DNA from: a virus
DNA: 64,000 nucleotides
Strand: one strand, 5' to 3'
Virus record (IMG/VR): IMGVR_UViG_3300045988_145033
Coordinates: 32,001-96,000 of that record
A program made the translations under genes and the position numbers. The stretch's first letter is position 1; every line of letters starts with the position of its first letter. The notes under the pieces were generated by a model, which saw nothing but the letters and a program-made list of their open reading frames with translations, was not told the origin of the DNA and did no database searches. Positions 7,785-38,012 of the stretch are shown here, piece by piece.

Positions 7785-10001
7785 ATGGAACTTAAAAATA
7801 CATATACATCTCAGATAGCTGAGATATTTAAAAGTAAAGAAACTTTAAAAGAAAACTGGATAAAATCAATAAAAAATAAGATAAGACTTGATGATATTAA
7901 ATCGCAAGAGTTATCAAGTATTTTTGATAAAGCATTCAAAGAAACTCGTATACAATATACAAACTCAGTACAAGGAAAGACAAGAACTCTAGGTGCACTA
8001 GAGTTTATTTATAATACATATAAAGACGAAAAGATACTTGTAGAAAACGGAGTAATATTTCGTAACTCAAGAGAAGTATTTGCTCCTACTGTGGAGTCTG
8101 AGATATATCTTTTCAAAAGAAGAAAGACAGTTAAGAAATTAGGTAACTATTGGCTTACAGAAGGGAATGACCCAATAGTTGGAGCGATATATGATAACTT
8201 GCAAAAGAATATAAAGATACTTATGAATACGTACTATGGGGTACTCACAAATCCATATTCGAGATTTTACAATAGAGATTTAGGAGATAGTATTACTATG
8301 CGTGGACGTTCATCTATATCAGTATCAGCTCTTTCTATGGAAGGAGCATTTGCTAAGAAGATACCACAAGAAACTGAAGCACTTCTTGCTTATTTTGATA
8401 GATGCTCGAAATCTCAGATAGATAAAGATATAATGTGTGATATGAGTTTTCTATATATGAATATTATGAAAGATAAAGATGAAATAGAAGAACTTTTAAA
8501 AGAGTTTCATTTAGAAAATCATTACGACAGAGAGCTTCTTGTAAGAATACTATGTGAATATACTACTCAAGATAGATGTAAGATATACTTTAAAAATAAC
8601 TTTAAAAGAATATCAGAACTTCACATATTTAAAAAGAATGTAATAGATTTCATGAAAGATAGTATAGAACTTAAGACACCGTTTCTTGACCCTAATGAAA
8701 TACCATTTGATAATGCTAAGGGTTATATAGAAGATTTAAGAAGAATAGTGTCTCAAGGACTTACAGGAATGTATTGGTATGGTGGAGATTATATCCAAGA
8801 AAGAGAGATACTTGTTAAGAACTCACAAGATGTAATACAAAGTATAGATAGAAAGGTTATACCGGTAATAGACACGGACTCTAACTTCTTATCTTATGAA
8901 ACTGAATATAATATATTATATGATATACTTAAAAATTCTATATCTTGTATGCCAGCAAAAGATGATGACAATACTTTCTACACTATATCTAATATATGTG
9001 CTATTGTGATGACAGAGGTTATAGATAGTGCTCTTGCGAGATATAAGACTTATGTAAATATACTTCCTGAGAAGAATGGTTGCTTGAAATTAAAGAATGA
9101 ATTTTTATATTTAAAACTTCTTATAACTTCAAGAAAGAAAAACTATATAGGACTTATATCATTAAAAGAGGGTAAACCTTATCCTAAACCTAAACTAGAT
9201 GTAAAAGGATTGGTATTTAAGAAATCGTCAGTAAACTCAAATATCGGTGAAGAGGTTGAATCTATTGTATCTAAACTTCTAAAAGATGATACTCTTAATA
9301 TAAATGATATACTTGCAAGAACTAGAGCAACTACAAATATGATACTAGATGCTCATAAAAACCAAAAGCTTTTAGATTACTGTGTAGCACTAAAGCTTAA
9401 GACTAAACTTGAAGAAACTGATATATCTGATTATAGATGCAAAATGGTAACTTTATGGAATGCTCTTGCTGAAAACGAAAGAGATATAATTATAACACCT
9501 GCAACTTTTTACTCTATTCCTATAAAGATTACAGATAAGTTTAGAAATAAATACCCAGAAATATATGGAAAAATTAAAGCGTGGCTTGACGAACGAAACA
9601 CAATTTTGATTAAAACTCAGATAAATGAGATACTTTCGGACTCTAAGAATAAGAAGTTTCGATTCCTTTCCTTTATGGACCAAAACTTTGACTTGTCTAC
9701 TATAGACTCAGCAGACTCGTGGGTACAAATGCGAAAAGACGCAATGAAACTTAAAAGAGATAAAGGTATAAAGATGCCTTCCGAAGATGTATCTTACTGG
9801 AGTGAAGACGATATATCAAAGATAGCATACCCTATAACGTCAGAAGTAGTTCCAGAATTTATCTTAGATTTAGTGAACGCCGACAATTCATTAGTTCTTG
9901 TCAATTCCCTTTTAGCACCTGTAATTCAAGAGCTTCATGTTTTATGTCCAAGAAATAGTGATGGTAAAAGACTTGTAACTAATATTGTCGAAAGATACTA
10001 G
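7785..10001 (+). CDS. family B DNA polymerase, C-terminal half (palm motifs B and C plus thumb)
   Basis: KILMNTYYG (Kx3NSxYG, motif B), VIDTDS (motif C), KKNY (KKRY-like); the likely start is the ATG at 7785 (the listed ORF begins at a TTG at 7776). Confidence 0.8.
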   Translation: MELKNTYTSQIAEIFKSKETLKENWIKSIKNKIRLDDIKSQELSSIFDKAFKETRIQYTNSVQGKTRTLGALEFIYNTYKDEKILVENGVIFRNSREVFAPTVESEIYLFKRRKTVKKLGNYWLTEGNDPIVGAIYDNLQKNIKILMNTYYGVLTNPYSRFYNRDLGDSITMRGRSSISVSALSMEGAFAKKIPQETEALLAYFDRCSKSQIDKDIMCDMSFLYMNIMKDKDEIEELLKEFHLENHYDRELLVRILCEYTTQDRCKIYFKNNFKRISELHIFKKNVIDFMKDSIELKTPFLDPNEIPFDNAKGYIEDLRRIVSQGLTGMYWYGGDYIQEREILVKNSQDVIQSIDRKVIPVIDTDSNFLSYETEYNILYDILKNSISCMPAKDDDNTFYTISNICAIVMTEVIDSALARYKTYVNILPEKNGCLKLKNEFLYLKLLITSRKKNYIGLISLKEGKPYPKPKLDVKGLVFKKSSVNSNIGEEVESIVSKLLKDDTLNINDILARTRATTNMILDAHKNQKLLDYCVALKLKTKLEETDISDYRCKMVTLWNALAENERDIIITPATFYSIPIKITDKFRNKYPEIYGKIKAWLDERNTILIKTQINEILSDSKNKKFRFLSFMDQNFDLSTIDSADSWVQMRKDAMKLKRDKGIKMPSEDVSYWSEDDISKIAYPITSEVVPEFILDLVNADNSLVLVNSLLAPVIQELHVLCPRNSDGKRLVTNIVERY

Positions 10002-10013
10002 GAGGTGATAATT

Positions 10014-10433
10014 ATGACAGGTATGAAAGACTTTATTGTACATACAGTAAAAGAGATTAAGGATATATTCGGAAGCATACTAGCTAAAGTTCTATTCTTC
10101 TACATATCGTATAAAGCGAAGAAGCTTTTATCTCTTATATCGACTGTATATATAGACGGAGTTAAATATCTCATCGAGTCAAGAGACACGATAAATGGTA
10201 AATTAAAGCTTTTCTCTAAAGATAAAGGATATTTAAACTTAGAACAAGATATCCTTTTAAGTGCTATAAAAGGAGCATTAGAAAAGCAAACTAATCCATT
10301 TGTCCTCAATGACAAAGATGTTCAGCTAACGTCCCTTAATATAATAAAAGAAAAAGTATCAAAACCGTTAGCTGATTTTATAAATATAAAGAATAAAAGA
10401 GTTACTCTTGATTTCAAGAGTATAGATAAATAA
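10014..10433 (+). CDS. hypothetical protein
   Basis: SD GGAGGTGA 5 nt before the ATG at 10014 (the listed ORF begins at a GTG at 10005). Confidence 0.65.
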   Translation: MTGMKDFIVHTVKEIKDIFGSILAKVLFFYISYKAKKLLSLISTVYIDGVKYLIESRDTINGKLKLFSKDKGYLNLEQDILLSAIKGALEKQTNPFVLNDKDVQLTSLNIIKEKVSKPLADFINIKNKRVTLDFKSIDK

Positions 10434-10445
10434 GGAGGCTTTAAA

Positions 10446-11324: not shown

Positions 11325-11330
11325 AGAGAT

Positions 11331-11352
11331 ATGGTAGGCTTTCGCCTACCAT
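11331..11352 (+). terminator. hairpin atggtaggc-tttc-gcctaccat, copy 1 of 3
   Basis: perfect 9-bp stem directly after the stop codon of 10446-11324; identical copies at 11631-11651 and 33092-33112. Confidence 0.5.
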
Positions 11353-12748: not shown

Positions 12749-12750
12749 TT

Positions 12751-14481: not shown

Positions 14482-14484
14482 AGA

Positions 14485-14512: not shown

Positions 14513-16426
14513 TTATAATTGTCCGTTTTTAAAGCTTTCTACATCGTATTGGTCCGGCATAGTTATTTGGTTAGTACCAAGTAGTGCTATAACTGCTCCA
14601 GTTGCCGCATCAAGTATTTTCTTTTCAGCGTCAATAGAGTTAAGTACCTTAAATGTAGTTATGTCTTTTAAAGTGCAAGTTTCACCTTTATATAACTTAT
14701 CAAGTAACACTCTTAAATCAAATGATTCTCTTATAATAAGTTTAGGGTCTTTATCTTCCATTCTATCAAAGTATTCGTTAAGTTGAGACGTTTCGTGGTT
14801 TTCAGATTCATACACTGCTTCGGTTAGATTAAATCCTACACTTTCAAATAGTATTTCTACTAAGTGAATATAAGCCATATTGATTCTATTAGCTATAGCT
14901 CTTTTTATCTTATCCATTGAATTTCCTGTCATTTTATATTTTAGATATACTTCTAAATAAGTTTTAGGAATTATAGTAGACATACCACCACAAACTCCTG
15001 AAGCTACAGCTGATTTTATAGCTCCTACCGCATCATCAACAGCTCCTAGTTTTCTATCTACTTCCCAAGAGTTATCAGCTCCAACTACTATTTCAGCATA
15101 CTTTCCATTTATTCTTCTTATTCTTGCTTTTATAGCATCAGCTCTTCCTTTATCATCTTTTACAAGAGCTAATTCTTCTTCAAGCTCTTTTACGTGTCCC
15201 TCGGCTCTTACTTTATCAAAACCAAATAAAGTAACTTGAGTTTTACTCATAATAGCATCTACTGGATTTATTGCTCCAACTTTTAATAGATTTTCTACAT
15301 ATGAAGAAACTGTGAAATCTAACTCTTCTTCTGTAAATTCTTCTATATTATCAGGGAATATATCTCTAAGTTTCTTATCAAGTTCATATGCTTGTGGTTG
15401 TCCTATCAAATATTCAAAGTCTTTATGTTCTTCTTGCGATAGTATTGTTCCAGTATAAGCATACTCGAGTATATAGATAGGTAAGAAGTCTACATTATAT
15501 TTAGTCTTATACCAATTTCTAACTTGTAGTATTTCTCTTTCAACTACATCTTTATATTGAAGATTATAAGTTATAAATACAACTGGAGACATATTTTCAA
15601 TACCAACACCGTGACCATTCATAAACTCTATCATATTATAAGCAACTTTAGCATATAGTTTCATAAGAGCTCTTATACTATCAGCCGATGCAATATTATT
15701 ATCAACTATAACTGGTATTATCTTCTTTCTTAAAACTGCTTTAGGAAATCCTAAAGGTCCTTGTTGTATAGTATATCCTTCTTTTACAGAATAGTTAGTT
15801 TTAGCTTGAGTTCCGTCTGCTTTATAAGTTACAGAGATATTAGATAAGTCTTCTCCGTCTCTTGTAATCTCTTTTAAAGCTCCTATTAAAGCATCTTTAA
15901 GTTCTGTATCATTATTTACAGAAGTTTCTATAATACCTATTAAATCACTTAAATCAGCTTGAGCAAACACTTTATGGTCGTCCATTTCTTTTTTGAAAGA
16001 TTCCACTACATCTTTAATTAAATCATTAAAGAATTGTGCTGGTAAGTTACTTTTATCTCTAAGCTCAGCTAAAGACTTATATAAATCAGCTATAAGTATT
16101 GTAGTAGTTGTAGTACCGTCTCCAGCTGTTGATAGAACTCCTAGCATAGATGATAATACAAGTTGCTTTAAAGCTTGTGCTACAGGGTGAAAGTATTTAG
16201 TTTTAGATAAAAGAGTATATCCGTCTTTTGTAATAGATGCAAGCACTGCACCATTATCTCCTGATTTTTGTATCATAAGAGTTGAAGCACCTATTGGACC
16301 ATAACTCTTTTTAACTACATCTGCCATATCATCAAGTATATGAGATATGTGCTCACTATTCATCACTGTGTGATTTGTCTCCAAAAGTATTTTCTTCGGT
16401 TGTTCCACTTTCTCTGTCATGTTCAT
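14513..16426 (-). CDS. GroEL-like (Hsp60) chaperonin
   Basis: [16 protein letters not shown] matches the GroEL ATP-binding motif GDGTTTATVLA; N-terminal [32 protein letters not shown] matches GroEL [36 protein letters not shown] near the C-terminus. Confidence 0.8.
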   Translation of the reverse strand: [637 protein letters not shown]

Positions 16427-23945: not shown

Positions 23946-26900
23946 TTATATAGATTTTCCTTTACAAATTCTATCAATAAGTTTATAAAAGTCATCATTA
24001 GAATTCATACCAGAACTTCCCATTGTAACTGGAGTAGGGTTACCATTGACCGTAGTCATTACATTGTATCCATTTAGTGCAAGATTTGTCTTCTTACCAG
24101 TTACAGCTTCTATGAATGTAGCAAATAGCTTATTCATATTACGTAACTCTCCTAAAATAGCTTCAAGTAATTTAGTTTCACCATTTTGTTCCATACCTTG
24201 AGAACGATTTATGAATTTTACCAAGTTTTCATTTATTTCATTTAAAATACCAGTCTGAGTTTGACTATGTTTTGCTGATGCTTGTATACCAGCTTTTATC
24301 TTATCTGTAGATAAAGCAATAGAGTTTGATGATTTAGCAACACCATCATCACTACCTTTTCCAGATAAGTTCATAGTCTTTGTATATTGCTCTGCCGCAT
24401 TATATGTCATATCACGAGATACACGTCCATATCCTGCAAGAACTGGCTCAACCACTTTTTCTTTAAATGTACCATAAGCTCCTTTTATGATATCTACCAT
24501 AGAAGCAGTTTTCTTTGCAAGTTTTACAGATGCTTTTTCTTTGTATATCAAAATTGCTTTTGCCATACGAAGACGTTTGTCATTTACTGAAACTTGCTCA
24601 GATGAGTTCTTTTCCGGGTCATTTATATAAATCTTACCATTTACCATCTCTTTACCTATTATGAAATGTGGTGCACCAGTTGATGATACTGTAAGAAGTA
24701 TAGGAGAACGTCCGGCACGTAGTTCACTTACAAATCTTGCAAGTACCTTATCATTAAATATAACAGAACGTATTTTATGCTCAGCTAGTATATTTACGAA
24801 ATACTTCATAGGCGTACCAGCTTTAGGTGATGATTTCATAGCAACAGCTTTACGTACTAAATCTTCCATATTGTATCTTATCTTTAACTTATCAAGAAGC
24901 ATAGCCATAACAGCAGGACCACAACCAGCTTCTCTAAATCTAAGTCCTCCACCCATTCCAAGTTTATTCCACTTTCCTGAGTTTTGTGATACGTGTTTCA
25001 TAGGTCCAAAACCTTCGTTACCAGCTTTTAATCCTTCTTGTTGCTTTGCTGACGTTTTAACTTTTTGAGTTACGCTATATGGGTCAAAGGCATCAACAAC
25101 ATATCCGTCAAACCCCATAAATTGTGCTGCTTCTTTTGTAGACGGATATTTAGATGCTGAGAAATTAGCAACTTCTCTTCCTCTTACGTGTCCATCTCCA
25201 TCTTTGTCCATTCCGTGATTTGCTTTATATTCCGCTGAACCACGCGAATAAACTGGCTTATCTGGATGATATCCTAAAGACTTAGGATAATGTAAGTAAG
25301 AATATAAGTTATATAGGTTAGGAGGATATTTACCCAAGCCTTTTATCCATCTAGGTCCAACTCTTTTTAATTGCTCAAGTGGCGTGAAACTTCCCGGAAG
25401 TTCATTAGGTGCAAACCCCCAACCTTTTCTGTAACTCTTCATTACTTGGAAAAGTCCAGATGCTCCACCGTTACTATTATATGCGTCAGGTTGCCAAGTT
25501 GACTCAGAATAAGATACAGCTAACATATTTCTCGCAACATCTACTCCCCATTGAGAAACAGCATAATCCCACATTTCTTTCATTTGCTTCCTATATTGTG
25601 GGTTCTTAGCTTTTTGCATAAGCCCCATATTCTTAGTGACTCCAGTTATAACATTTCCACCACTAAAATCTCCTGAACTTGAATCTTCTGCTACAACATT
25701 GCCGTTTTCATCTAGGTTAAATCCTAAAGATGTTGCTAAATTTTTCACAGTAGCACCTATATCGAAGTTTTTGATAAATTCATATCTATCTCCAAATTTA
25801 GAAGCATTGTCATCATCTATCATAGCTTGCATATCAGATTTAGCTTTTGTAGCTTCTTGAGTTGTTGTATCAACTTTTGTAAGCTTACCGTCTGGAGTTA
25901 CAGGTCCAAATCCTTGATAAGCTCCATATCCGTCACTATCAGTTTTATATTTATCATACAACTTACTATTCTTTTTAGCTATGTCTTCTTTTTCTTTTTT
26001 ATCTTTCTCTTCTTGTTGCTTTTTAAGTTTTTCTTGATTTTCTTTTCTCTTCTTTGCATCTTCGTCACGTTTCTTCCAATAATCTGGGTCTTTTAAATCA
26101 TAATCGCTATCAGCATCTGGGTCATATCCATAATCAGTCTTATCAACATCACCATTTGCTTCTTCTTCACGCTTAGCTTTATATTCTTCATATTTGCTCT
26201 TACCCCATTCTTTTAATTCTTCTTCTTCTCTCTTCTTAGCTTCTTCTTTATCACTTTCTTCTTTATTAAAAGCTTCTAGTGCTTCTTTTGATTTCCATTC
26301 GGATTCATCAACACCAGATACCCATTCGTAGAACCACACAACCATATCATCTATAGGGATAGCAGCAAGCCACCATACTTTAGATGATGCTAGTCCCCAT
26401 AATAGTTCCACAAAACCTGATGCAAATTTCATACCAGTAGTTATGTAATCAGAACCTACGTTGAAATAATCTCTTGCGTGTCTCCAACCATGAATAAAAT
26501 CATATATTGCAAATATTCCGTCTACTATAGCTCCTACTGGTGGTAATGCGTAAGATGCAGAACGAGTAACATTTTTAGCTGTCTTCTTAGCGGCTTTCTT
26601 TGCAGCCTTTTTACTCATCTTTTTAGCAACAACTTCTATTCCGCCTTTCTTTAAAAGTTTTTCAGCAAATGCTTTAGTAAGCTTATAATTAAGAAGTTTT
26701 CTTAACATCTTTTCTATAAACTCTTTAAACCATTTACCAATAGCGGTTTCTGTTATTTGCTTTACTCCACGTTCAGCCAGATTTTGAGCACCTTTTCTAA
26801 ACGCTTCGTTTTTAAATAAACCATTTTTAGCTATTCTAAGTCCAGTTTGTTGAATATTATGAGTTACAGTTTCTCCAGTTCTTCCAGTAGAGTTTATAAA

Positions 26901-29900
26901 GTTTTCGTATTGTTGTCCATAAGAAGAATTAGCAAACGCAACAAGTGCTCCACCACCAACAAGTGCTCCTATTGCCGGAAGTGCTTTTACTATAGCTCCA
27001 CCCATAATCTTAGAACCAAGTCCTTGCATTCCAAGTTTTGTGAATATATTACCTAAGAATTTAGAACCTCCACCACCAGAACCAAACATAGATGCCGCTG
27101 CTCCAGCTATAGTTCCTAATACACCATTATCTTTCACTTGTTGTACTAAAGTTACCTTACCATCTTTATCCTTTTTCTCCTTATCTTTTTTGTCTTGTCT
27201 TTTATCAATGTCAGCATATTCTGCACCGTCTTTCATCTTAGGTGATTTACCTTTTCTTCTCTTTCCAGACATAGCAGATTTGAAGTCTTCTTTATATCCA
27301 AGCTTATTATACATAGATTCAGCATATTCTAAATCTACTGCACCAACAGCTTTTACAACTTCAACTACTCTTACATTATCTATTATACCGCCTTCAACCC
27401 AAACTTTATTAGTTCTATTCTTTCTACCAAATAGAATATTCCATACACCGGTTACTAAGTCTTTACCTCTTTGATATATCCAGTCAAATACCTTACCAAC
27501 TGAAGTTACAAGCCAAGTAATACCTCTACCTATCTTATCAAGACCTTTATCTATGATAGTTCCTATTCTATCAGCCGCACCCATAACTATAGCAGGAAAA
27601 TTAGATATAAGTTTCCAAGCAAGTCCAAAAGTAGCATTCCATAAAGTTCTACCGAATATCTTAATACCACCCCATATCTTGCCAGCAAACATTCTAAGTC
27701 CTAAAAGCATTTGAGTTCCCCAATACTTAATAGATGAGAATACCCCTTTTACGAACCCACCTATTCTTGAAAGCACTGGTAGTGCCATATGTTTCCATAT
27801 AGATTTAGCTATCCATAAAGGAAACTTAATAAACATAAGCTTCATAGCACCTAATGTTTGCATAGTTGCTGATACGACAGGTCTTACAAGTTTATTATAA
27901 AGTCCAGAAAGTAGAGCTCCCGGTAAAGCCTTAAGTCTTCTCCAACCGTTTTTGAATTTTTGTCCAAGCCAAGAGAAGTGCTTATTCTTTACATTCTTCG
28001 CACCAAAGCCGGGAATAGGTCCATATTTACGAACAAGAATTCTTTTAATATACTCAGCATTATATGCAAGAGATGAGGTTTGAAGATTTATAGTATCACG
28101 AAGTTTTTCAGCTTCTTCTAAATACTTCTTTCTCCAATTCTTTATAAGGATATAAAGTTCGGAACGTTTACCTAAATACTTAGCAAGAGCCGACCTTTGT
28201 GTCATATTCTTGTCAAAGGCTTGTATACCACCTTTTATCTTTTGAGCAACATTTACAACACCATCTCTCATCTTCTTAATCATAGATACCTTTATTGGAT
28301 TTCCATTCTCATCTAAAACTTCAGGTTCGTCTTCATTTGGGTCTTTTTTTCCAAATTTAGATTTAAGCCAACCTTTTATAGCGTTGACATAACCTTTCTT
28401 TCCTTCTTCTACATTTATACCTTCTTTGTGAAGAAATTCTTCAGTAGTTTCACCTTTCTTCAAAGCCTCGGCTTCAGGCATAGTTTTACCTATGACTTCT
28501 CCTATTTTATTTACATATGCTTTCTTTCCTTTTTCTAGCATATCCTTTATATTCTCATCTGTAGTAGATGAAACTACAGCTTCTTTAGGACCTACTTCCT
28601 CAGCTTTAGCCCCAGCTAACATAGTTCCAATAGTTATCTTTTCTTCATTTGTTAATGTCTTCCATTGTTTTTCTTTAAAGAATATCGCTTGCTTTGCGTG
28701 TGCTTCTAAAGTAGCAATATCCACTGTCATATCAGGTTTTCTATCAGGGTCTGCATATTCTACAGTTCCTTGAGAAGATATAAAGTATACCACAATATAA
28801 TGAAGATTATCAGTTTCAAAATCTGATAACTCTACTATTACACAATTTCCAGAAAAAGCACCTTTCATAAATGACATAAATGTACCAGCTTTAGGATTTA
28901 CAACATGGGTTGCATCTATTCCAAATTTTCTAGCGACGCTCATTATATATGAAGCTGGAACTCCATTTGTAGAACCTGTCCAACCAAATGATTTCTTAGT
29001 TAGATATTCAGGTTTTATAGAAAATCCTGTAGCACGAGATAAAGCCGTTGCAAGAGCTGATAGTCCACATAAAGTTCCATCTCCACCAATATTTGGTATG
29101 ACTTTACTTTTTATAGATTTCGCTATATCTTTTGCAACTCCTTTTAGATTAAGTGCTCCACTTCTTCCTTTTATACCCTTTCCTGATTGCCCTTCTTCTT
29201 CTTTAGCTTTGGCTTTTTGAGCTTCATCGACTTTAGCATCCGCTTCAGCTTTCTTCTTAAGATAATCAGCTTGAATTTCTTTACCTCTTTTCTTAAGTCT
29301 AAAAGCTTCGAGTCTTTCATCTAAAGTTTTATCTTTTACTTCTTGTACGTCTTGACCTTCCATACGTTTAGCAATAGCAGCCTTTTTAGCATCTTTTGCT
29401 CTCATCTTAAGTAAAAGCTTTTTATCACTTTCAGAAAACTCTGAAGCTTCTTGTACGTCTTTATCTGTCATACCTTCAGAACGCATATAAAGGTCTTCTT
29501 TACGTCTTGTAGCATTTTCATAAGCTTCAACATTTTTAACACCTTCTGGAGTTTTAGCTGTATGAGAAGCACTAAATGAAGCTCTTCTATCAGCTATATC
29601 GTCAGCGTCCGTTCTTCCAGTTACTAGAGTTCTAAACATTTTAAACGGAGCCGCAATTATTCTACCTATGAATTTAAACATTCCACCGAATATCTTTTTA
29701 AATACTCCAGCAATAGGGTCTATTACCTTTTCTTTCATAGTTTTAAAGAATGGTTTTACAAAGTCATTTGTAAATGAACCCGTAAGTTCTCCTTTTATAC
29801 CAGTTATAGTTTTAAATATACCAGAAGCTGTATTTGACATAAATTCCTTAATAGGAGTAAATGTTTGCGAAAGTGGCTTCCATATATCTTTTCTAAACCA

Positions 29901-32900
29901 TATAGCCATCTTTCTAGGAGCTTCTTTTATAAATCCAGTAAATCCTTTTGTAGCTTTTGTAAGTATTCCTTCTTTACCAGACTCTTTATCTCCTATAAGC
30001 CAAGTCTTTAAGTTTCCTAAGAAAGTTCCTTCTTCAGTTCCAAAAAGCATTTTTCTAAAACCTTTAGATTCCCCAGCTATAGATACAGCAAGTCCAGCAA
30101 GAGCCGCATTAACTGGTCCTATAAAACCAAGAGGTGTTGCAGCCGCAAGTATTCCAGAAAGTCCAGCAATAGCTCCACCTGTAACAAGTGCTCCTTTTGT
30201 AATTCTCATCATCTTAGCACGTGCTTCTTTAGCTTTTTCACTATTTCCAAATAATCTTTCAAATAAGTTAGACTTATAAGCATACACTCCAACTCCTAGA
30301 GCGAGAGCACCTAAAGCTAGAGGAGATGCAAGTCCTGTAAGTCCTATTATTGGACCAAACATTGACTTCTTCAAGAACTTGAAAGCTCCTATACCTGCCG
30401 CACCTATCATTGCGGCTTTTGATGCTTTCCATATAGTATCTTTATTATCTTCGTAAAAGTTCTTAGCTTTATCTTTCATATCTCCCATTTTTTCTTTAAA
30501 AGACTTAGCTGTATTTTCTACTCTTTCTTTCATTCTATCGACAGCTTCTGATTTACCAGATTCTATACCGTCAACAGTTCCATCATCTTTTAATTTAATA
30601 GAAGAAGCAACTGATGATACTGAATTTTTAGCATCTTTCCAAACAGACTTCGCTTTATCTATTTTTCCGTCAACGTTAATATCAGACCTTACTTGAAATC
30701 TATCTTTTAACTCAACTATCTTCTTTTTAAACCAGTTAGACGAATATATTATATCTTTAATTTCTTTTCTTATATCTTCGTCTTTCTTTTCTGGGTCTGT
30801 AAGTATTTCAAGTATTCTATCTTTATCTTTATCAGTCACATCGAATTTATCAAGTTCCATTTTAATAGATTCTATTTCTAAATTTCCGCCTATTATAGCA
30901 TCTATTGTAGCTTGGTGTCCTAGAATAGTATCAATAGAAAATACATCTGTATCCATCATATTTTTAAACCACTCTTTATCTTGAACTCCTATTCTTTCTC
31001 CAAGTTTAGTATTTCCTATATCAACTATAAAGTCCTTTATCTTATTTTTGAACATAGTTCCAGCTCTTCTATTATCTTTATAGAATTCATCTATAGATTT
31101 AATAGCATCTGGAGTTAGAGTTTCTCCTAATATATTTCCAACAAGTCCATCTTTATTCTTAAGAGATACCTTACCTTCATTCTTTAAAAGATATTCATAC
31201 TTAAACCCTAAAGATTCAAGTATCTTTTTCTTATCTTCTTCCGATACATTGCTACCGCCTCCAACTCCACCAGTTAGAAGTTGTTGAAATATAGCTTTAA
31301 GTCCTACGGCAGAACCTTCGTCTATAGAACCTGAGTTATTTAAAAGATGGATAACTCCATTATTTCTTGACTCTAAACTTTGCTCTCTAAAGAAATTATT
31401 AGAATCTCTTATCCAAGTTTCCATAGATTTATCAAGTGATGCGAACTGGTCGGCTCTATTTTTCTCAGCTTTATTCATCAAATCCACGAACTTATAAAAA
31501 TCTGATTTTGAAAGTTCATCAGACGATAAATTAAGATTTGATAGCAGTTGTCCGTAATCGTGTTCCTTGAAGTTAGTTAAAGTGTAACCCTTTTTAGATA
31601 GTTCTTCCATTACGATTTTAGTAAAATCATTAAGTCTTTGCTCATCTAAATTCTTCTTATCACCATCAGACATTTGAGATTTGAGCATTTCAGCTAGTTG
31701 TCTGTATTCGTACTTCATTGTAGGTCTATTATCTTCAAATTCTTTACGAACTGTAGATAATGTCTTAAACTGTCCTTTATTATAATCATACGTAGTTCTC
31801 TCATTTCCAGTTAAAGCTGAAGCAATAGATGATAGATATGTAGGAATTACTGTAACTATAGCTTCTCTTGTTATGCCATCGAAAAATACATGCTTTGATT
31901 TATCATACTTATCTGTACGAAGATTAGATTCAACGTCAGGTTTTATCATAACAGACCTACCGAAAGTAGATAAAGTTGCATTAGATGATAAAGATGCAGT
32001 TCTTGCTTGTTTATTAATAAAGTCTTGAGTTGTTCCAAATACTCTTTCTACCTTTTTAGCAATTTTATCTAGTCCAAATAGTTTATTAAGCTGATTGTCT
32101 ATAGCAAAGGCACGAAGTGCTGCAAATGGATTTGAACCGAATGCTTGCATAAGCATAGGAAGTGCAGCCATAGCAAGTCCCCAAGTTCCTTGAAACTTTT
32201 CTTGGTCGATAGCTCTACCTAATTCTCCACCTAAAGCCTTTACACCTTGTCCCATTTCCCCTTTACGAATAGCTTTATACCATTCTGGAATATAGTCTCC
32301 ACCTCTATCATCTTCTTTATTTATCTTAGGTAAATAGTAATCTGATAGCATTTCTTTTAATGCTTTATGCTCTGTAAGCATCTCTGTTTGTATAGCAAGT
32401 AACTTTTGTTGTATACCGACAGATTGAGTTAAGCTATCAGCCATAGTTCTATAATACATTTCATTTTTAAGCATTTGAGATTTAATATCAGAACTTGTAG
32501 CTACGAGTGTATTATTTATGGAAGTTGCTGTTTGCATAAATCCTTCCATCATCATCTTTTGCGATGCTTTAGTACCACCTTGTATACTTTTAGATAATCT
32601 TCCTACAGCGGCATATGTCGCTATACCGTTGGTAGCACCAACGGAAGGAGAGCTTTGTGAACTACTATCAGAAGACTCGCTATCTCTACTCGAATCCCCA
32701 CTCTCGAAGAAAAAGTCATCTTCACCAAAATCAAAGTCTGCATCAAGTCCATACATCTCATCTTCAGATTTATAGAATTTACCAGATTTAAGTCCAGCAA
32801 ACGCATTCTTTGTAAGAGATGATACGAATTGATAAAGAGATGATTGTTTTATTTTATTTTTAATTCCGGAAAAACCAGACGTATTTCTACTATCATTAAA

Positions 32901-33035
32901 CGCCTTATATCCAGCACGAACGTCTTTTGAGAAATTCATAGTATTTCCAAATGTATCTGACATATAATCAGCATACACATTTCTCATTGACATCTTGGCG
33001 TTATACATATAAGTCGATTCTTTTTTACCAGCCAT
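23946..33035 (-). CDS. giant (3029 aa) virion or tape-measure-like protein with one lytic transglycosylase domain and two papain-like peptidase domains
   Basis: SLT motif YSESTWQPDAYNSNGGASGLFQVM (about nt 25440-25530); Cys-His peptidase signatures DGTLCGLSALA...NLHYIVVY...DPD (about nt 28700-29100) and AGCGPAVMAMLL (about nt 24450-24940); long Lys/Glu coiled-coil tracts and Gly-rich hydrophobic segments. Confidence 0.8.
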   Translation of the reverse strand: MAGKKESTYMYNAKMSMRNVYADYMSDTFGNTMNFSKDVRAGYKAFNDSRNTSGFSGIKNKIKQSSLYQFVSSLTKNAFAGLKSGKFYKSEDEMYGLDADFDFGEDDFFFESGDSSRDSESSDSSSQSSPSVGATNGIATYAAVGRLSKSIQGGTKASQKMMMEGFMQTATSINNTLVATSSDIKSQMLKNEMYYRTMADSLTQSVGIQQKLLAIQTEMLTEHKALKEMLSDYYLPKINKEDDRGGDYIPEWYKAIRKGEMGQGVKALGGELGRAIDQEKFQGTWGLAMAALPMLMQAFGSNPFAALRAFAIDNQLNKLFGLDKIAKKVERVFGTTQDFINKQARTASLSSNATLSTFGRSVMIKPDVESNLRTDKYDKSKHVFFDGITREAIVTVIPTYLSSIASALTGNERTTYDYNKGQFKTLSTVRKEFEDNRPTMKYEYRQLAEMLKSQMSDGDKKNLDEQRLNDFTKIVMEELSKKGYTLTNFKEHDYGQLLSNLNLSSDELSKSDFYKFVDLMNKAEKNRADQFASLDKSMETWIRDSNNFFREQSLESRNNGVIHLLNNSGSIDEGSAVGLKAIFQQLLTGGVGGGSNVSEEDKKKILESLGFKYEYLLKNEGKVSLKNKDGLVGNILGETLTPDAIKSIDEFYKDNRRAGTMFKNKIKDFIVDIGNTKLGERIGVQDKEWFKNMMDTDVFSIDTILGHQATIDAIIGGNLEIESIKMELDKFDVTDKDKDRILEILTDPEKKDEDIRKEIKDIIYSSNWFKKKIVELKDRFQVRSDINVDGKIDKAKSVWKDAKNSVSSVASSIKLKDDGTVDGIESGKSEAVDRMKERVENTAKSFKEKMGDMKDKAKNFYEDNKDTIWKASKAAMIGAAGIGAFKFLKKSMFGPIIGLTGLASPLALGALALGVGVYAYKSNLFERLFGNSEKAKEARAKMMRITKGALVTGGAIAGLSGILAAATPLGFIGPVNAALAGLAVSIAGESKGFRKMLFGTEEGTFLGNLKTWLIGDKESGKEGILTKATKGFTGFIKEAPRKMAIWFRKDIWKPLSQTFTPIKEFMSNTASGIFKTITGIKGELTGSFTNDFVKPFFKTMKEKVIDPIAGVFKKIFGGMFKFIGRIIAAPFKMFRTLVTGRTDADDIADRRASFSASHTAKTPEGVKNVEAYENATRRKEDLYMRSEGMTDKDVQEASEFSESDKKLLLKMRAKDAKKAAIAKRMEGQDVQEVKDKTLDERLEAFRLKKRGKEIQADYLKKKAEADAKVDEAQKAKAKEEEGQSGKGIKGRSGALNLKGVAKDIAKSIKSKVIPNIGGDGTLCGLSALATALSRATGFSIKPEYLTKKSFGWTGSTNGVPASYIMSVARKFGIDATHVVNPKAGTFMSFMKGAFSGNCVIVELSDFETDNLHYIVVYFISSQGTVEYADPDRKPDMTVDIATLEAHAKQAIFFKEKQWKTLTNEEKITIGTMLAGAKAEEVGPKEAVVSSTTDENIKDMLEKGKKAYVNKIGEVIGKTMPEAEALKKGETTEEFLHKEGINVEEGKKGYVNAIKGWLKSKFGKKDPNEDEPEVLDENGNPIKVSMIKKMRDGVVNVAQKIKGGIQAFDKNMTQRSALAKYLGKRSELYILIKNWRKKYLEEAEKLRDTINLQTSSLAYNAEYIKRILVRKYGPIPGFGAKNVKNKHFSWLGQKFKNGWRRLKALPGALLSGLYNKLVRPVVSATMQTLGAMKLMFIKFPLWIAKSIWKHMALPVLSRIGGFVKGVFSSIKYWGTQMLLGLRMFAGKIWGGIKIFGRTLWNATFGLAWKLISNFPAIVMGAADRIGTIIDKGLDKIGRGITWLVTSVGKVFDWIYQRGKDLVTGVWNILFGRKNRTNKVWVEGGIIDNVRVVEVVKAVGAVDLEYAESMYNKLGYKEDFKSAMSGKRRKGKSPKMKDGAEYADIDKRQDKKDKEKKDKDGKVTLVQQVKDNGVLGTIAGAAASMFGSGGGGSKFLGNIFTKLGMQGLGSKIMGGAIVKALPAIGALVGGGALVAFANSSYGQQYENFINSTGRTGETVTHNIQQTGLRIAKNGLFKNEAFRKGAQNLAERGVKQITETAIGKWFKEFIEKMLRKLLNYKLTKAFAEKLLKKGGIEVVAKKMSKKAAKKAAKKTAKNVTRSASYALPPVGAIVDGIFAIYDFIHGWRHARDYFNVGSDYITTGMKFASGFVELLWGLASSKVWWLAAIPIDDMVVWFYEWVSGVDESEWKSKEALEAFNKEESDKEEAKKREEEELKEWGKSKYEEYKAKREEEANGDVDKTDYGYDPDADSDYDLKDPDYWKKRDEDAKKRKENQEKLKKQQEEKDKKEKEDIAKKNSKLYDKYKTDSDGYGAYQGFGPVTPDGKLTKVDTTTQEATKAKSDMQAMIDDDNASKFGDRYEFIKNFDIGATVKNLATSLGFNLDENGNVVAEDSSSGDFSGGNVITGVTKNMGLMQKAKNPQYRKQMKEMWDYAVSQWGVDVARNMLAVSYSESTWQPDAYNSNGGASGLFQVMKSYRKGWGFAPNELPGSFTPLEQLKRVGPRWIKGLGKYPPNLYNLYSYLHYPKSLGYHPDKPVYSRGSAEYKANHGMDKDGDGHVRGREVANFSASKYPSTKEAAQFMGFDGYVVDAFDPYSVTQKVKTSAKQQEGLKAGNEGFGPMKHVSQNSGKWNKLGMGGGLRFREAGCGPAVMAMLLDKLKIRYNMEDLVRKAVAMKSSPKAGTPMKYFVNILAEHKIRSVIFNDKVLARFVSELRAGRSPILLTVSSTGAPHFIIGKEMVNGKIYINDPEKNSSEQVSVNDKRLRMAKAILIYKEKASVKLAKKTASMVDIIKGAYGTFKEKVVEPVLAGYGRVSRDMTYNAAEQYTKTMNLSGKGSDDGVAKSSNSIALSTDKIKAGIQASAKHSQTQTGILNEINENLVKFINRSQGMEQNGETKLLEAILGELRNMNKLFATFIEAVTGKKTNLALNGYNVMTTVNGNPTPVTMGSSGMNSNDDFYKLIDRICKGKSI

Positions 33036-33091: not shown

Positions 33092-33112
33092 ATGGTAGGC
33101 TTTCGCCTACCA
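33092..33112. terminator. hairpin atggtaggc-tttc-gcctaccat, copy 3
   Basis: identical to 11331-11352. Confidence 0.45.
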
Positions 33113-33120
33113 AAATATAC

Positions 33121-35538
33121 TTATTCTTCTTGCCCTTCTTCTTTAAGATTATCTTTAAATGTAAGTTTATGAACTTTCCATTTTTCTTCAATTTGTTCAA
33201 GCTCTTCTGAATGGTCGTATGCTGGGAATAGTTCTTTTATAAGCTCTCTTCTTATAAATAGTTTCTTCTCAGCAGATAATGTGTCTTCTTCTCCATAATA
33301 CATTTTCATTATATTATTTAAACTTTCTTCAAACTTCTGAGCATTTTCGTTAGATATATTAGAAGTTAAAAGTTTAGGAACAGGGAATGTTATATCAACA
33401 TGTGTATCATCTTCTCCAGTTTCATATCTTGCTATCTTAGTTGCAAGTTCTGTAGCCATAGGAGCATAATGCACTTGAAGATTAGTTATCATTTGTACAA
33501 GTCTTCCGTCTTGAGCTATAATAGATGTAGCATAATCGTATGTCTTTTCTGCTTGATTAAGAGTTGACATAGGGAAACCTACTATATCTTCTATTATAGT
33601 TTCAAGGTTTTTCATAAAATCATCATTTGAATTATCATACTTTTGACCTTCTATTCTGTCTACTGAGAATAACTCATTACCAGCTTTATCCACAGGAATT
33701 AAAAGTCTTCCAATAGTTGCCATAGATGAGTGTACTCTTGTGAAATCTGTAAGCTCAGACGGTAGCGGAAATAAATCTGTAAATATCTCCATGGCATCAT
33801 TTCTATCATTGAATAAGCTTTGTGCAAAAGTAGTTCTGTATTTTATAGCAAGTTTATCCTTTTCATAGAATAGTTTTGTCATCATCTTATCTTGTTGTAA
33901 AAGTGTCCAGAATAGAATAGGAATTCTTGCGTATAAAAGTTTAGATTTTCCTATACCATTATTTGATTCTTCATTTTGAAAAGGAACTAAATATTTTCTA
34001 GGTATAAATCTTATTCTAAATTGAGACTTATACATATCGTTTTCTTCTAGCACTTTAAGCATAGAACCTAGTATTCTTCTATTTTCTGTAACGAAGTTAG
34101 CATCCATATGCTCAGTTAATATATTAGAAAGTCCTTCTATTATATCCTTTCTTACTATAGGATTATCTTTGTAATCTCCACTATCTCCAAACTTATTAGA
34201 ACCTAATACGTTATTTATAGTATTAGAATATGATTTATTAGCAGCATAATCCATAAATGTATCTATATAGTAAACTCCTATAAGTTCCTTATTTACTATA
34301 ACTGGATAAGTCTTCTCATCATCAAGAGGAGATACATAACAACCAGTCATATCTTTTATCTTAGATTTTCTTTTAGACTTTGTACTTCTTTTAAGCTCAG
34401 CCAGTGCCTTTTTGTATTCAGCATCATCAGTTGCTTCAGCATATAGTTTACTTATTTTAGCTTGTTTTACAACTTCTCTTTTATCAGCTCTTGTTGTCAA
34501 AAAGCTTTCATTTGACTCTCCCATAAGTCTCATATGAATACTATGAGCTATCTTTTCTTTATGATTAGGAGAATATACAGATTCTGTAAAGAATTGAGAA
34601 GCTAACTTTTCTTTTGTTTCCACACTCTTGTCTATAGGTTTTGCAAATGATTCCGAATAAGTCTCGTAAACTCTACTATATTTTCCCATACCAAAAGCTT
34701 CATCTATAGCATCGTATAGAGTTGACATTATCTCTCTTCTTTGAGTAGAAGTTCCATTATATGATTCTCTATATAGTTTTACATAATTTGCAGGAATTAC
34801 GATATTTTCACTTTCTCCATAAAAAACTACGTCTTCTATCTTATCTATATGAGACATACCATAAAGTTGTGGTTGCCCACCCGGTATAACTCTTTGTCCT
34901 TGAGCCATCTTACCCTCTATTATTTGTCTTTGCTCAACCTTACTTCCTGATACTCTATCAAGTAATTTCTTTGCTACATTTTGTAAAGGTATGAGTTCTA
35001 TAAATCTATAACCTAGCTCTAAACTTGCAAGTATGCTATCGTTTACAAGTTTATATAAACCTCTTTCTTCAAGTATTGCATTTATATCAGATTGTGTAAA
35101 AGCACTATCAGATTTTAAATAAATGTCTTGTATAAGTTCTTCTTCTGAGTAGTTATCAGGAGACATAATAAATTTAGTTAGGTTTGCAAATGTATTATGT
35201 AGCTGAGGCATTTGAGTAAGCATATAGTTTGACTCACGAATAAGTCTAGTTCTTTCATTATAAGGAATAGAGTGTACATATCTTTTACCCATATTCTCCA
35301 TAACTTCTACAAATTGATTTTCAAGGTCAGTTTCCTTTCCTCTTATTCTTGAACGTGCTTCTACTATATTACCTTGTCCTGCTGTTGATTCTATTGACGA
35401 TTGTACAAAATTAAAGCCTATATCATCTGAACTATCCATAAGCTTACCTATATCTGTAGTAATACCAAAAACTTTAGACGTCGTTTTATCCCTAAGTTTT
35501 AGGTATTGTTCTTCATTCTCTTGTCTATTAAGTGGCAT
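33121..35538 (-). CDS. hypothetical protein (805 aa)
   Basis: long ORF with SD AAAGGAGGAAATAAT. Confidence 0.7.
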   Translation of the reverse strand: MPLNRQENEEQYLKLRDKTTSKVFGITTDIGKLMDSSDDIGFNFVQSSIESTAGQGNIVEARSRIRGKETDLENQFVEVMENMGKRYVHSIPYNERTRLIRESNYMLTQMPQLHNTFANLTKFIMSPDNYSEEELIQDIYLKSDSAFTQSDINAILEERGLYKLVNDSILASLELGYRFIELIPLQNVAKKLLDRVSGSKVEQRQIIEGKMAQGQRVIPGGQPQLYGMSHIDKIEDVVFYGESENIVIPANYVKLYRESYNGTSTQRREIMSTLYDAIDEAFGMGKYSRVYETYSESFAKPIDKSVETKEKLASQFFTESVYSPNHKEKIAHSIHMRLMGESNESFLTTRADKREVVKQAKISKLYAEATDDAEYKKALAELKRSTKSKRKSKIKDMTGCYVSPLDDEKTYPVIVNKELIGVYYIDTFMDYAANKSYSNTINNVLGSNKFGDSGDYKDNPIVRKDIIEGLSNILTEHMDANFVTENRRILGSMLKVLEENDMYKSQFRIRFIPRKYLVPFQNEESNNGIGKSKLLYARIPILFWTLLQQDKMMTKLFYEKDKLAIKYRTTFAQSLFNDRNDAMEIFTDLFPLPSELTDFTRVHSSMATIGRLLIPVDKAGNELFSVDRIEGQKYDNSNDDFMKNLETIIEDIVGFPMSTLNQAEKTYDYATSIIAQDGRLVQMITNLQVHYAPMATELATKIARYETGEDDTHVDITFPVPKLLTSNISNENAQKFEESLNNIMKMYYGEEDTLSAEKKLFIRRELIKELFPAYDHSEELEQIEEKWKVHKLTFKDNLKEEGQEE

Positions 35539-35584
35539 ATTATTTCCTCCTTTTGAGTTACTTTAAAACTAAAGTGGTGTTTGT

Positions 35585-35606
35585 GATACTCCCGCTAGGG
35601 AGTATC
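35585..35606. terminator. hairpin gatactccc-gcta-gggagtatc
   Basis: 9-bp stem. Confidence 0.45.
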
Positions 35607-38012
35607 ATATTGTAGGGTTTTACTTTCTATAGATATATGAAAATTACCAACTTTTGGAACTTTTACATCATACTCAAATACGAATACATCATCAGAATGT
35701 ACAGTACAAGTAACTTCATCTGACAGGAATATATGCGTTCTTGCCGTTACATCTATCTTCTTATTATCCATTTTAATAGTAGTTATAATATTAGGATTTT
35801 TAGATACTTCATCTATTGTATCTTTATTTATGAATTTACAAGATACTATTTCTTTCTTTAAAAATCTATTAGGTTTTATATAGTCTTCTATATGGTTTTT
35901 ATATTCACCATCTATTTTAACTATATAACCGTCTTCATCTTCTTTTAAAGTAAATAATTCTCCTAATGATTTATAAGGAAATTTACTATCGGGAGTGAAT
36001 GTAACTTCATATAGTGAACCATTTATAACTTGACGAGATACATTATTTCTTATATGAAATGATGATAAATTAGATACAACTCCCGCTTTAATATCAGAAG
36101 CATCTACTTTTGTATTATCAAGTCTTCCTAAAACCTTTCTTACAGCTTCGGCATATTTAAACTCATCTTTTCCTAAGAATAATGTATATGCTGGAGTTTC
36201 TTCTCTTACATATGGTTTATTTGTAGCTATATTATATGTAAACGATGCTATCTCTTTTGCTGTAGGAAGATTAAAGAATGCTGTTCCTATTATATCTACG
36301 TCTTTATCAATAAGTGCTTGTATCCCTTTTTCTACAGGTATTTCCTTTTCTTCATTTAGTTCTATTTTTTCTATTCTACCGTCTAAGCTATCTTTTGATA
36401 CATTAGTGTGCTCAACTATCATAGGATACATAGACAGAGCATCTGCGTCCATGACTTTATTTAAGAATTTATTATTAGGTAAATCATCTAAAAATGGAGT
36501 CATTTCCTTTTTAAATTTATTAGGGTCAGAACATAATCCGCCTGCTATTTGTATTCTATTTGTAAGAACGTCATATGTACTTTCAATAGCATCATCTACT
36601 TCACGTAGTCTTTCTATTATTCTCTCAGCAGATTCATTCTTTGTCATAATAAGCTTATTAACATCATTAGACATTATATATCCCATTCTCTTACATAAGT
36701 GGAAGAATGTATTGGTAACTGAAGTCATAGGAGAGTAAACTCTATCAAACTCAGTTCTTACTATAAATCTTCTAGTTAAAAGTGAAGATATATCATCTGT
36801 CTTTATATCATTAAATGCCATAACTATAACGTCAATCATATTGTACATTACATAAACCCAATAATCTTCATAAGGAAGTTTACCGATAAAGTCAGTTATG
36901 TGAGCATATGATAGTTTACCAAAACCTAACTCATGCTTTGATATAGCGTCTAAGCTCTCTCTTTCTAATTGGTCTTGTGGACGAAGTCCAAAGTAACTTT
37001 GTTGTACATCTACTATCTTAGTAAAAGACTCTGAATTATAATTGTGTCTTCTCTTAGCGGCTTTAGGGTCTTCGTTTCTATAGTTAAAATCAAATCTATT
37101 TCCAACTTTAGGGTGACAGAATAGCTTATGCTGAGGAATTCCTAATTTGTCTGCTCTATATTGTGTATGACGAACGTCGTATACAGCATTAAATATTCCA
37201 AGATACATAGGTTTATAAACTTGTATCATTTGATACCAACTGTCTTCTATCATCTCTTTTTCTGTATTATACCAAGATATAATAATCTTCATTTCTTCTA
37301 CAATCTTTTTAAATCTAGGAGCTAGAAGATTTCTAGTTTTATCGTCCATTTGAGCTTCATCTATTATCTTTAAAAGCATAGATTTAAACTCATCTTTAAA
37401 TTTATCTTCATTTTCTTTTATTTCGTGAAGTCTTTTAAAATCGTCTCTTATTATAGAAAATACATGACAAGTATTTGTACTATCATCATAATAAGTAGAG
37501 CAGGTAATAGGTTGAAGTTCTTCTATATCTGTATTTAAAACATCAGTTTCTATATCGTAATAACCTTTCTTTAAATTCTTAATAGGTGGTAAGTCATTAT
37601 AATCCTTGACTCCATCTTTTTCTTCATAACCTAAACTATCAAGATAATCCATTATTGCTAAATCTTCTATAAATAAGTCTGAGCCAATAGTTCTTCTATC
37701 TAAGAAAATATGGTCATATTTTATCTTCTTTTCTTTAAGTCCTCTTTTAAACTTATCTCCCATATTTAAAATCTTAGCTATATCGAAACCTCTCCATTTA
37801 TAAGATACTTTTTGTATAACTAGATTACCAAGAGATATAGTCTCTCTATAGTAATCTGGAGCATCTCCCTTTACAAAGTAAGCTGGTACTTTAGGGTGCT
37901 TTATTTTCTTTACATATTGCTTACCAGTTTCTGTATCGTACATAAATATATTATAAACATCTTCATCTTTATTATAATATGAGTTATAGAATAAATCTTT
38001 TGCTTTCTCCAT
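35595..38012 (-). CDS. family B DNA polymerase, N-terminal half (3'-5' exonuclease domain plus palm motif A)
   Basis: Exo I YYDIETD, Exo II-like IFNAVYD, Exo III YNMID, motif A DADALSMYPMI (DxxSLYPS); likely start is the ATG at 38012 after GAGGTGATTGAT (the listed ORF begins at a GTG at 38021). Confidence 0.75.
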   Translation of the reverse strand: MEKAKDLFYNSYYNKDEDVYNIFMYDTETGKQYVKKIKHPKVPAYFVKGDAPDYYRETISLGNLVIQKVSYKWRGFDIAKILNMGDKFKRGLKEKKIKYDHIFLDRRTIGSDLFIEDLAIMDYLDSLGYEEKDGVKDYNDLPPIKNLKKGYYDIETDVLNTDIEELQPITCSTYYDDSTNTCHVFSIIRDDFKRLHEIKENEDKFKDEFKSMLLKIIDEAQMDDKTRNLLAPRFKKIVEEMKIIISWYNTEKEMIEDSWYQMIQVYKPMYLGIFNAVYDVRHTQYRADKLGIPQHKLFCHPKVGNRFDFNYRNEDPKAAKRRHNYNSESFTKIVDVQQSYFGLRPQDQLERESLDAISKHELGFGKLSYAHITDFIGKLPYEDYWVYVMYNMIDVIVMAFNDIKTDDISSLLTRRFIVRTEFDRVYSPMTSVTNTFFHLCKRMGYIMSNDVNKLIMTKNESAERIIERLREVDDAIESTYDVLTNRIQIAGGLCSDPNKFKKEMTPFLDDLPNNKFLNKVMDADALSMYPMIVEHTNVSKDSLDGRIEKIELNEEKEIPVEKGIQALIDKDVDIIGTAFFNLPTAKEIASFTYNIATNKPYVREETPAYTLFLGKDEFKYAEAVRKVLGRLDNTKVDASDIKAGVVSNLSSFHIRNNVSRQVINGSLYEVTFTPDSKFPYKSLGELFTLKEDEDGYIVKIDGEYKNHIEDYIKPNRFLKKEIVSCKFINKDTIDEVSKNPNIITTIKMDNKKIDVTARTHIFLSDEVTCTVHSDDVFVFEYDVKVPKVGNFHISIESKTLQYDTP

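Follow-up and report, generated by a model that had tools for sequence, protein, structure and literature searches.

Can the active site of one replicative DNA polymerase be divided between two genes that lie far apart and face opposite ways? This question was raised by a 64,000-nucleotide stretch of viral DNA (positions 32,001–96,000 of the IMG/VR record IMGVR_UViG_3300045988_145033; hereafter the window), in which an earlier note, made from the sequence alone, had described a family B DNA polymerase (PolB) split within its palm domain into a minus-strand gene (N-half, 35595–38012) and a plus-strand gene (C-half, 7785–10001). Both open reading frames (ORFs) were found at these positions, on opposite strands and 25.6 kb apart. 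Based on the sequence comparisons described below, we consider it probable (roughly 0.85) that each gene encodes one obligatory subunit of the phage's replicative family B DNA polymerase, a divergent enzyme of the kind known from group 1 jumbo phages (phiKZ/AR9-type), with the break between motifs A and B.

Both genes have an ATG three codons inside the mechanically called ORF (at 38012 and 7785), preceded by a Shine-Dalgarno sequence. Residues are numbered here from the mechanical ORF starts (GTG at 38021 and TTG at 7776); subtracting 3 gives the numbering from the ATG.

Two incomplete genes of one polymerase family

The C-half matched two Pfam families above their curated cut-offs, namely divDNApol (PF20286; 2e-20, 72.9 bits vs. 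a cut-off of 25.7) and DNA_pol_B (PF00136; 3e-13, 49.9 bits), and all 42 of its homologs carried one or both of these domains. The N-half had no match to any Pfam family at E-values up to 1 and was identified only through PHROGs, profile–profile, and structure searches; it matched PHROG 3011 (“DNA polymerase”) with an E-value of 4e-21 over residues 31–592. In phmmer searches against the PDB sequences, the N-half matched RB69 gp43 in the region of Exo III and motif A, and the C-half matched archaeal PolB in the region of motif B. AlphaFold models built from alignments of 21 (N-half) and 39 (C-half) sequences had mean predicted local distance difference test (pLDDT) scores of 79.3 and 89.7, respectively. 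RB69 gp43 was the top Foldseek match for both models, together with T4 gp43 for the C-half. The profile and structure searches that the earlier note had proposed thus assigned both proteins to the family B polymerases.

All motifs quoted in that note were recovered (Table 1) and were backed by Pfam, PHROG, hhalign, and Foldseek matches. The N-half carried the three motifs of a DEDD 3'-5' exonuclease (Exo I, II, and III) and polymerase motif A, while motifs B and C and the KKxY motif (KKNY) were on the C-half. The PolB set was complete but divided, and neither gene encoded a PolB in a single polypeptide. In motif A, residues D525, D527, Y532, and P533 were invariant among the 21 N-half homologs, down to approximately 20% identity. 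Hidden Markov models of both halves and of RB69 gp43, searched against the 430 six-frame ORFs of at least 40 amino acids in the window, matched only these two genes; neither a third PolB fragment nor a complete PolB was present there.

One part of the description had to be corrected: the C-half does not start with motif B, which is preceded by approximately 143 residues comprising a 65-residue head, an NG hairpin, and the first finger helix. In the fingers, R116 and K120 were also invariant in 39 homologs. K147 of motif B and D366 of motif C were 219 residues apart in the C-half vs. 61 in RB69; a long helical insert has been described for the divergent phiKZ-type polymerase family (PMC7824862).

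Table 1. Features of the two polymerase genes and of their surroundings in the window (residue numbers from the mechanical ORF starts; gene lengths from the ATG).
Feature	Positions	Strand	Description
C-half gene	7785..10001	+	738 amino acids; remainder of the palm, followed by the fingers, a long helical insert, motif C, KKNY, and the thumb
N-terminal head, residues 4–68	7785..7979	+	Three helices and a hairpin; no confident RB69 counterpart
Motif B (KILMNTYYG), residues 147–155	8214..8240	+	In the fingers; K147, N151, G155 invariant in 39 homologs
Multi-helical insert between motifs B and C	8358..8780	+	Helices over residues 200–330 in the model
Motif C (VIDTDS), residues 364–369	8865..8882	+	D366, T367, D368, S369 invariant in 39 homologs
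KKNY, residues 454–457	9135..9146	+	Equivalent to RB69 KKRY; K455, Y457 invariant in 39 homologs
N-half gene	35595..38012	-	805 amino acids; N-terminal domain of PolB and 3'-5' exonuclease, then the first segment of the palm (bearing motif A), the conserved tail, and a C-terminal domain specific to the clade
Exo I (YYDIETD), residues 154–160	37542..37562	-	D156, I157, E158, T159 invariant in 21 homologs
Exo II (IFNAVYD), residues 276–282	37176..37196	-	N278, D282 invariant in 21 homologs
Exo III (YNMID), residues 393–397	36831..36845	-	Y393, N394, D397 invariant in 21 homologs; aligns to RB69 YNIIDV
Motif A (DADALSMYPMI), residues 525–535	36417..36449	-	D527 corresponds to RB69 D411 and Y532 to RB69 Y416; 273 residues follow
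Conserved post-break tail, residues 553–600	36222..36365	-	Three short helices, motif [FL]x[LM]P; no RB69 counterpart
C-terminal extension, residues 601–808	35598..36221	-	About 210 residues, mostly beta strands
Promoter-like GAAAAACA-N6-TG	7741..7756	+	29 nt upstream of the C-half ATG
Promoter-like GAAAAACA-N6-TG	38024..38039	-	12 nt upstream of the N-half ATG
TATATATTATA class sites	3698-3760, 4480-4565, 5198-5280, 7230-7290, 49028-49100, 58763-58825		Upstream of minus-strand genes
RNA polymerase beta/beta' fragment	1516-3444		Multisubunit RNA polymerase; group 1 (phiKZ-type) jumbo phage hallmark
GroEL-like chaperonin	14513-16426		Group 1 jumbo phage hallmark
RNA polymerase beta/beta' fragment	53693-56485	+	Multisubunit RNA polymerase; group 1 jumbo phage hallmark
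DnaB-like helicase	58853-60502		Group 1 jumbo phage hallmark

Break point and proposed shared active site

The break was mapped with hhalign by aligning the profile of each homolog alignment to the RB69 gp43 sequence. The N-half family aligned from residue 66 to approximately 548 with RB69 25 to approximately 433 (probability 99.1%, E-value 5e-19), finishing at DADALSMYPMIVEHTNVSKDSLDGRI. The C-half family aligned from approximately 69 to 593 with RB69 approximately 434–845 (probability 94.9%, E-value 5e-8), opening with LGALEFIYNTYKDEKILVENGVIF opposite RB69 APLHDYINAVAERPSDVYSCSPNGMMY. The two halves were therefore exactly complementary and collinear on RB69, with zero overlap and zero gap, which supports the proposal that they are complementary pieces of one PolB broken in the palm between motifs A and B. 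The cut falls in the first palm segment, approximately 20 residues past motif A and ahead of the hairpin that leads into the fingers. Residues 553–808 of the N-half and 1–68 of the C-half had no RB69 counterpart. The N-half tail and the C-half head were unrelated to each other (hhalign probability 0.2%); a duplicated or overlapping segment at the junction, left over from gene duplication, was therefore rejected.

The proposed division of labor follows the alignment. In subunit 1 (the N-half), the N-terminal domain would be joined to the DEDD exonuclease for proofreading and to the first segment of the palm, where motif A would supply the metal-binding aspartate D527 and the steric-gate tyrosine Y532. 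Subunit 2 (the C-half) would add the hairpin that leads to the fingers, the fingers themselves (including motif B), the long helical insert, motif C with D366 and D368, KKNY, and the thumb. Because the break lies at RB69 gp43 433/434, motif A is on the N-half only, and no further PolB piece occurs in the window, the catalytic site would be assembled in trans, with one metal ligand per chain. The comparisons show the motif content, the collinearity with RB69, and the conservation of catalytic residues and break point; we infer that the chains associate as parts of one enzyme, probably with the N-half tail (residues 553–600) and the C-half head (residues 1–68) as docking elements. In the model of the isolated N-half, the sole long stretch of low confidence was residues 490–550 (pLDDT <50), which includes motif A; this fits a palm strand that needs its partner chain to fold.

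A different division has been the literature picture of phiKZ-like phages since 2011: an exonuclease chain and a complete polymerase chain (Kazlauskas and Venclovas, 2011, PMC3201878), with the divergent polymerase described in 2021 as carrying a long helical insert and having its exonuclease encoded separately (Iyer et al., 2021, PMC7824862). Applied to the window, the N-half would be a stand-alone proofreading exonuclease with a vestigial or structural motif A, and the C-half a self-sufficient polymerase without a canonical motif A. Polymerases without a fused exonuclease are mentioned in the literature (PMC7824862), and the C-half folded confidently on its own in the model. Yet the DxDxxxxYP signature was invariant in all N-half homologs examined, including those of Phikzvirus and Seoulvirus, which would be unexpected of a vestige at approximately 20% identity, and the annotators of phage AR9 likewise chose the term “partial catalytic domain” for the equivalent chain. 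Where RB69 has motif A, hhalign placed a gap in the C-half, and the C-half alignment begins exactly where that of the N-half stops. Among 42 C-half homologs, including those of AR9, SPN3US, and OBP, the only acidic positions conserved in at least 85% were E189, D366, D368, E442, E465, and D475, so that not one conserved acidic residue preceded motif B. An independent exonuclease beside a self-sufficient polymerase consequently appeared improbable.

Several points weigh against the two-subunit polymerase. Direct evidence of physical association or activity was found for no phiKZ-type polymerase, the window pair included, and a solved structure of this family was absent from the PDB sequences searched. 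The promoter assignment given below draws on sequence analogy with AR9 only. Furthermore, both catalytic aspartates of phage EL (D229 and D398) have been placed on the polymerase chain (PMC3201878). In OBP, a relative of EL, the residue 169 positions before motif C falls after motif B, which is not the place of motif A in any PolB. The assignment of EL D229 to motif A is thus at odds with our alignments of every relative tested, a set to which EL itself does not belong.

Distribution and age of the split

The earlier note considered a break at this position unusual, a claim that was not supported. The same break was present in AR9, phiR1-37, Phikzvirus, and Seoulvirus. AR9 gp132, phiR1-37 g170, and the homologs from Phikzvirus U5 (638 amino acids) and Seoulvirus SPFM11 (594 amino acids) all carried Exo I–III and motif A (DxDxxxxYP) and stopped 77–89 residues past motif A, with a tail containing [FL]x[LM]P. 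The so-called exonuclease chain of phiKZ-type phages (Pseudomonas phage U5, Salmonella phage SPFM11) therefore also carries an intact motif A. C-half homologs started 130–156 residues before motif B, including the SPN3US protein (YP_009153312.1) that Iyer et al. used as an example of the divergent polymerase. One metagenomic C-half homolog of 876 amino acids (P0042) formed an exception, with approximately 130 extra N-terminal residues that represent an unrelated addition; as aligned, it shows that sequence can also be added to the polymerase chain at its end near the junction.

Relatives of the N-half were found by tblastn in 305 phage records (query: the distant family member P0021) and relatives of the C-half in 322 (query: the SPN3US polymerase chain), with near-identical organism counts in the two sets (Pseudomonas 81, Erwinia 62, Vibrio 23, Serratia 21, and Aeromonas 20). 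The two genes were typically 30–50 kb apart and often on opposite strands (Erwinia AH06, Aeromonas D9, Klebsiella YC1, and Pseudomonas BRkr): the separation was approximately 49 kb in Erwinia AH06 (opposite strands), 32 kb in Aeromonas D9, and 30 kb in Klebsiella YC1, and 15 kb in AR9 (same strand). Both halves also lay on contigs of matching length, 169,028 and 155,191 bases. As judged from these alignments and searches, the break point is ancient and common to hundreds of phages.

The note further held that the split PolBs known so far either carry inteins or are cut between their exonuclease and polymerase domains; this was contradicted by the phiKZ “split subunit DNA polymerase” (Thomas et al., PMC5105663) and by phage 44RR, with its break at RB69 512/521. 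The split between motifs A and B is a family trait of phiKZ/AR9-like phages that was already recognized and is not new here. Near-identical genomes with both genes annotated are already in GenBank, and the split polymerase, as a known signature, carries little weight as a discovery. The present analysis refines this picture by the exact break point, which lay at one residue position (RB69 433/434) in every homolog aligned, by the presence of motif A on the “exonuclease” chain of all of these homologs, and by one clade-specific appended domain. The break at 433/434 puts motif A on the “exonuclease” chain and so sharpens the exonuclease-only descriptions: PMC3201878 and PMC7824862 treat the partner chain as an exonuclease only, and our alignments place motif A there too.

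The pieces might also be joined after expression, by a split intein or RNA trans-splicing, or have been separated recently by a mobile element. PolB splits linked to inteins or homing endonucleases occur in other phages (MIJ3, Aeromonas phage 25), and the gene next after the N-half gene of phiR1-37 codes for a homing endonuclease. In the window pair, Pfam searches found no Hint, intein, LAGLIDADG, or HNH domain in either protein at E-values up to 1, nor in the junction segments at E-values up to 10, which settled the check for such remnants that the note had suggested. Residues 1–100 of the C-half contain no histidine, and hence no His-Asn junction of a C-intein. The 273 residues that the N-half runs past motif A form a conserved and confidently folded domain, not an intein, and each gene lies on its own strand, 25.6 kb from the other, with a Shine-Dalgarno sequence, a promoter-like motif, and a stop codon to itself. 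Since a recent disruption is also at variance with the age of the break point, this explanation was judged highly improbable.

Practically negligible, in our estimate, is the chance that the separation reflects an assembly artefact, a rearrangement in one sequence, or a decaying pseudogene half. Nothing specific favored it, apart from the rearrangements for which phiKZ-like genomes are known (PMC5105663). The Fusobacterium nucleatum phage JD-Fnp1 has the two polymerase genes in the same order and orientation, both genes occur at 95–98% identity in four independently sequenced phages, and unlinked halves are the rule among relatives. Both genes also remained full length in homologs down to 43–46% identity, which speaks against a pseudogene.

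In phiR1-37 (NC_016163.1, 111536–118080), the gene directly after the N-half gene g170 is g171, annotated as a “homing endonuclease” (561 amino acids), with nothing comparable in the window. There, g167, annotated as “DNA polymerase” (420 amino acids), lies 1.7 kb from g170 on the other strand, and the phiR1-37 polymerase may be fragmented further.

Clade-specific extension of the N-half

The beta-rich extension of approximately 210 residues at the C-terminus of the N-half is the only clade-specific feature of the pair. It was modeled with pLDDT values of mostly 80–93 for residues 650–800 and was kept in homologs down to 43% identity, and it was absent from the AR9, phiR1-37, Phikzvirus, and Seoulvirus homologs compared. 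A search of 1.84 billion representative proteins returned only polymerase chains of the same clade and a few unrelated repeat proteins (SprB, Big_7, and BTB). Because of this outcome, a phmmer match to a collagen adhesin (6fwv, E-value 6e-5) was treated as compositional, and the identity of the extension as a Cna-B-like repeat was rejected.

Two more distant N-half homologs of 919 and 911 amino acids (P0012 and P0013) had a still longer C-terminal extension, with approximately 110 extra residues inserted, and four others (P0014–P0017) had a different one of approximately 125 residues. Judging from these alignments, domains seem to be added repeatedly to the C-terminal end of the N-half chain.

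A docking or DNA-binding role of the extension is speculation. We regard as unlikely, though worth stating, the combined proposal that the N-half tail (553–600) and the C-half head (1–68) form a dedicated heterodimerization module and that the beta-rich domain is a DNA-binding or processivity element. If true, the extension would take the place of a sliding clamp, a component that surveys in the literature did not detect in phiKZ-like phages, and the Fusobacterium clade would represent a natural variation on a polymerase that always builds its active site from two chains. Neither of the two main domain maps published for the phiKZ enzyme states this property. The extension is a possible handle on chain docking, or on processivity without a recognizable clamp.

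Promoter-like motifs

A shared motif upstream of both genes had been taken to suggest their co-expression. The motif itself was real, as its extended form GAAAAACA-N6-TR occurred 5 times in the window vs. 0.87 expected, each time 12–33 nt upstream of a start codon and on the correct strand. Its targets were the two polymerase genes and genes for a superfamily 2 (SF2) helicase, a tail-like protein, and an unknown protein, and the last three show that it does not mark a replication-specific class. The core AACA-N6-T[A/G] occurred 25 times on both strands of the window, and 13 of these copies lay within 100 nt upstream of gene starts (0.9 expected); among them were those of the portal gene, a 3029-codon gene, the tail-like gene, and the helicase gene. 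Being common to at least 13 genes, including helicase, tail-like, portal, and giant structural genes, the motif provides no pair-specific link, and specific co-regulation of the two halves was rejected.

This core equals the consensus that has been mapped for late promoters of AR9 (PMC5312081). By analogy, both halves would be transcribed from AR9-late-type promoters by the phage's own non-virion RNA polymerase (RNAP). A second motif class, TATATATTATA, resembled the AR9 early (virion RNAP) promoter consensus AAATATATATTAT-N6-G (PMC5312081) and preceded neither polymerase gene. Together, the two classes suggest an AR9-like two-polymerase transcription program in a Fusobacterium phage.

At several small minus-strand genes, TATATATTATA lay 55–86 nt upstream and was followed by TAG approximately 6 nt on. 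Both polymerase genes bordered divergent intergenic regions (7700–7784 and 38013–38093) with one copy of AACA-N6-T[A/G] per outward-facing gene; at 7733–7750, two copies overlapped as a near-perfect palindrome, GTGTTTTGAAAAACAC.

Phage and genome context

Proteins of the window were 95–98.5% identical to those of F. nucleatum phages JD-Fnp1, 4, 6, and 7 (tblastn; genomes of 175–180 kb), in which each half had a single tblastn location. In the annotated records of JD-Fnp1 and JD-Fnp4, both polymerase genes are labeled “DNA polymerase,” and the lengths from the ATG starts equal those annotated for JD-Fnp1_178 (N-half) and JD-Fnp1_160 (C-half). The context typical of group 1 jumbo phages, namely a split multisubunit RNAP, a divergent DnaB, and GroEL, was found in the window, which also encodes an SF2 helicase, counted among the phiKZ-type hallmarks. 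These 175–180 kb phages fall within the AR9/phiKZ lineage, with which they share the split PolB, the split multisubunit RNAPs, and promoter motifs resembling the early and late classes of AR9. The paper on the JD-Fnp phages nowhere uses the terms DNA polymerase, RNA polymerase, phiKZ, AR9, or jumbo.

The 930-residue RNAP protein encoded at 53693–56485 matched two beta-subunit PHROGs, 2986 at residues 2–294 and 2962 at residues 486–920, and its sequence may join two RNAP fragments catalogued as separate PHROG families. The 3029-codon ORF (23946–33035, minus strand), preceded by AACA-N6-TG, had no PHROG match; its JD-Fnp1 ortholog is annotated as a “papain-like cysteine protease.”

Comparison with known systems

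The pair gp132 and gp152 of AR9/PBS1 (Takahashivirus) has the same two-gene architecture and break point as the window pair. In the AR9 annotation and literature, gp132 is an “exonuclease and partial catalytic domain” and gp152 the catalytic subunit. AR9 gp132 (554 amino acids) carries Exo I–III, motif A (IDFDLSSLYPS), and a tail of approximately 70 residues with a conserved xLP, and gp152 (641 amino acids) starts approximately 139 residues before motif B. The halves are unlinked in both phages, but those of AR9 are on the same strand and only approximately 23–24% identical to those of the window. In addition, the AR9 polymerase genes have annotated early promoters, whereas only the late-type motif was seen at the window pair, and AR9 gp132 lacks the beta-rich C-terminal extension.

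Among the phiKZ-group polymerases of PF20286 (e.g., SPN3US YP_009153312.1), the C-half agrees in its PF20286 score, in the helical insert between motifs B and C, and in its N-terminal boundary. The partner chains from Phikzvirus U5 and Seoulvirus SPFM11 share Exo I–III and motif A with the N-half but stop 79–89 residues later, making the N-half approximately 210 residues longer. The window phage also differs from the phiKZ group in its host (Fusobacterium) and in its genome size, 175–180 kb instead of >200 kb.

PolB genes in pieces are also known from intein-containing systems (Pseudomonas phage MIJ3 and archaeal PolBs), where intein blocks are present and splicing yields one chain, in contrast to the window pair with its lack of intein features. 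In the T4-like phages 44RR and 25, PolB is likewise cut between motifs A and B into two polypeptides, gp43A and gp43B. The 44RR proteins align to RB69 5–512 and 521–902, so that the break is at the tip of the fingers and not at 433/434, and the 44RR/25 cistrons are adjacent and co-oriented, whereas the window genes are unlinked. The 44RR/25 split is tied to an intercistronic element, a homing endonuclease, and an intron, and represents a recent, lineage-restricted event. Since gp43A and gp43B of Aeromonas phage 25 co-purify with polymerase activity (PMC2988022), they provide a direct precedent for a PolB active site rebuilt from two chains.

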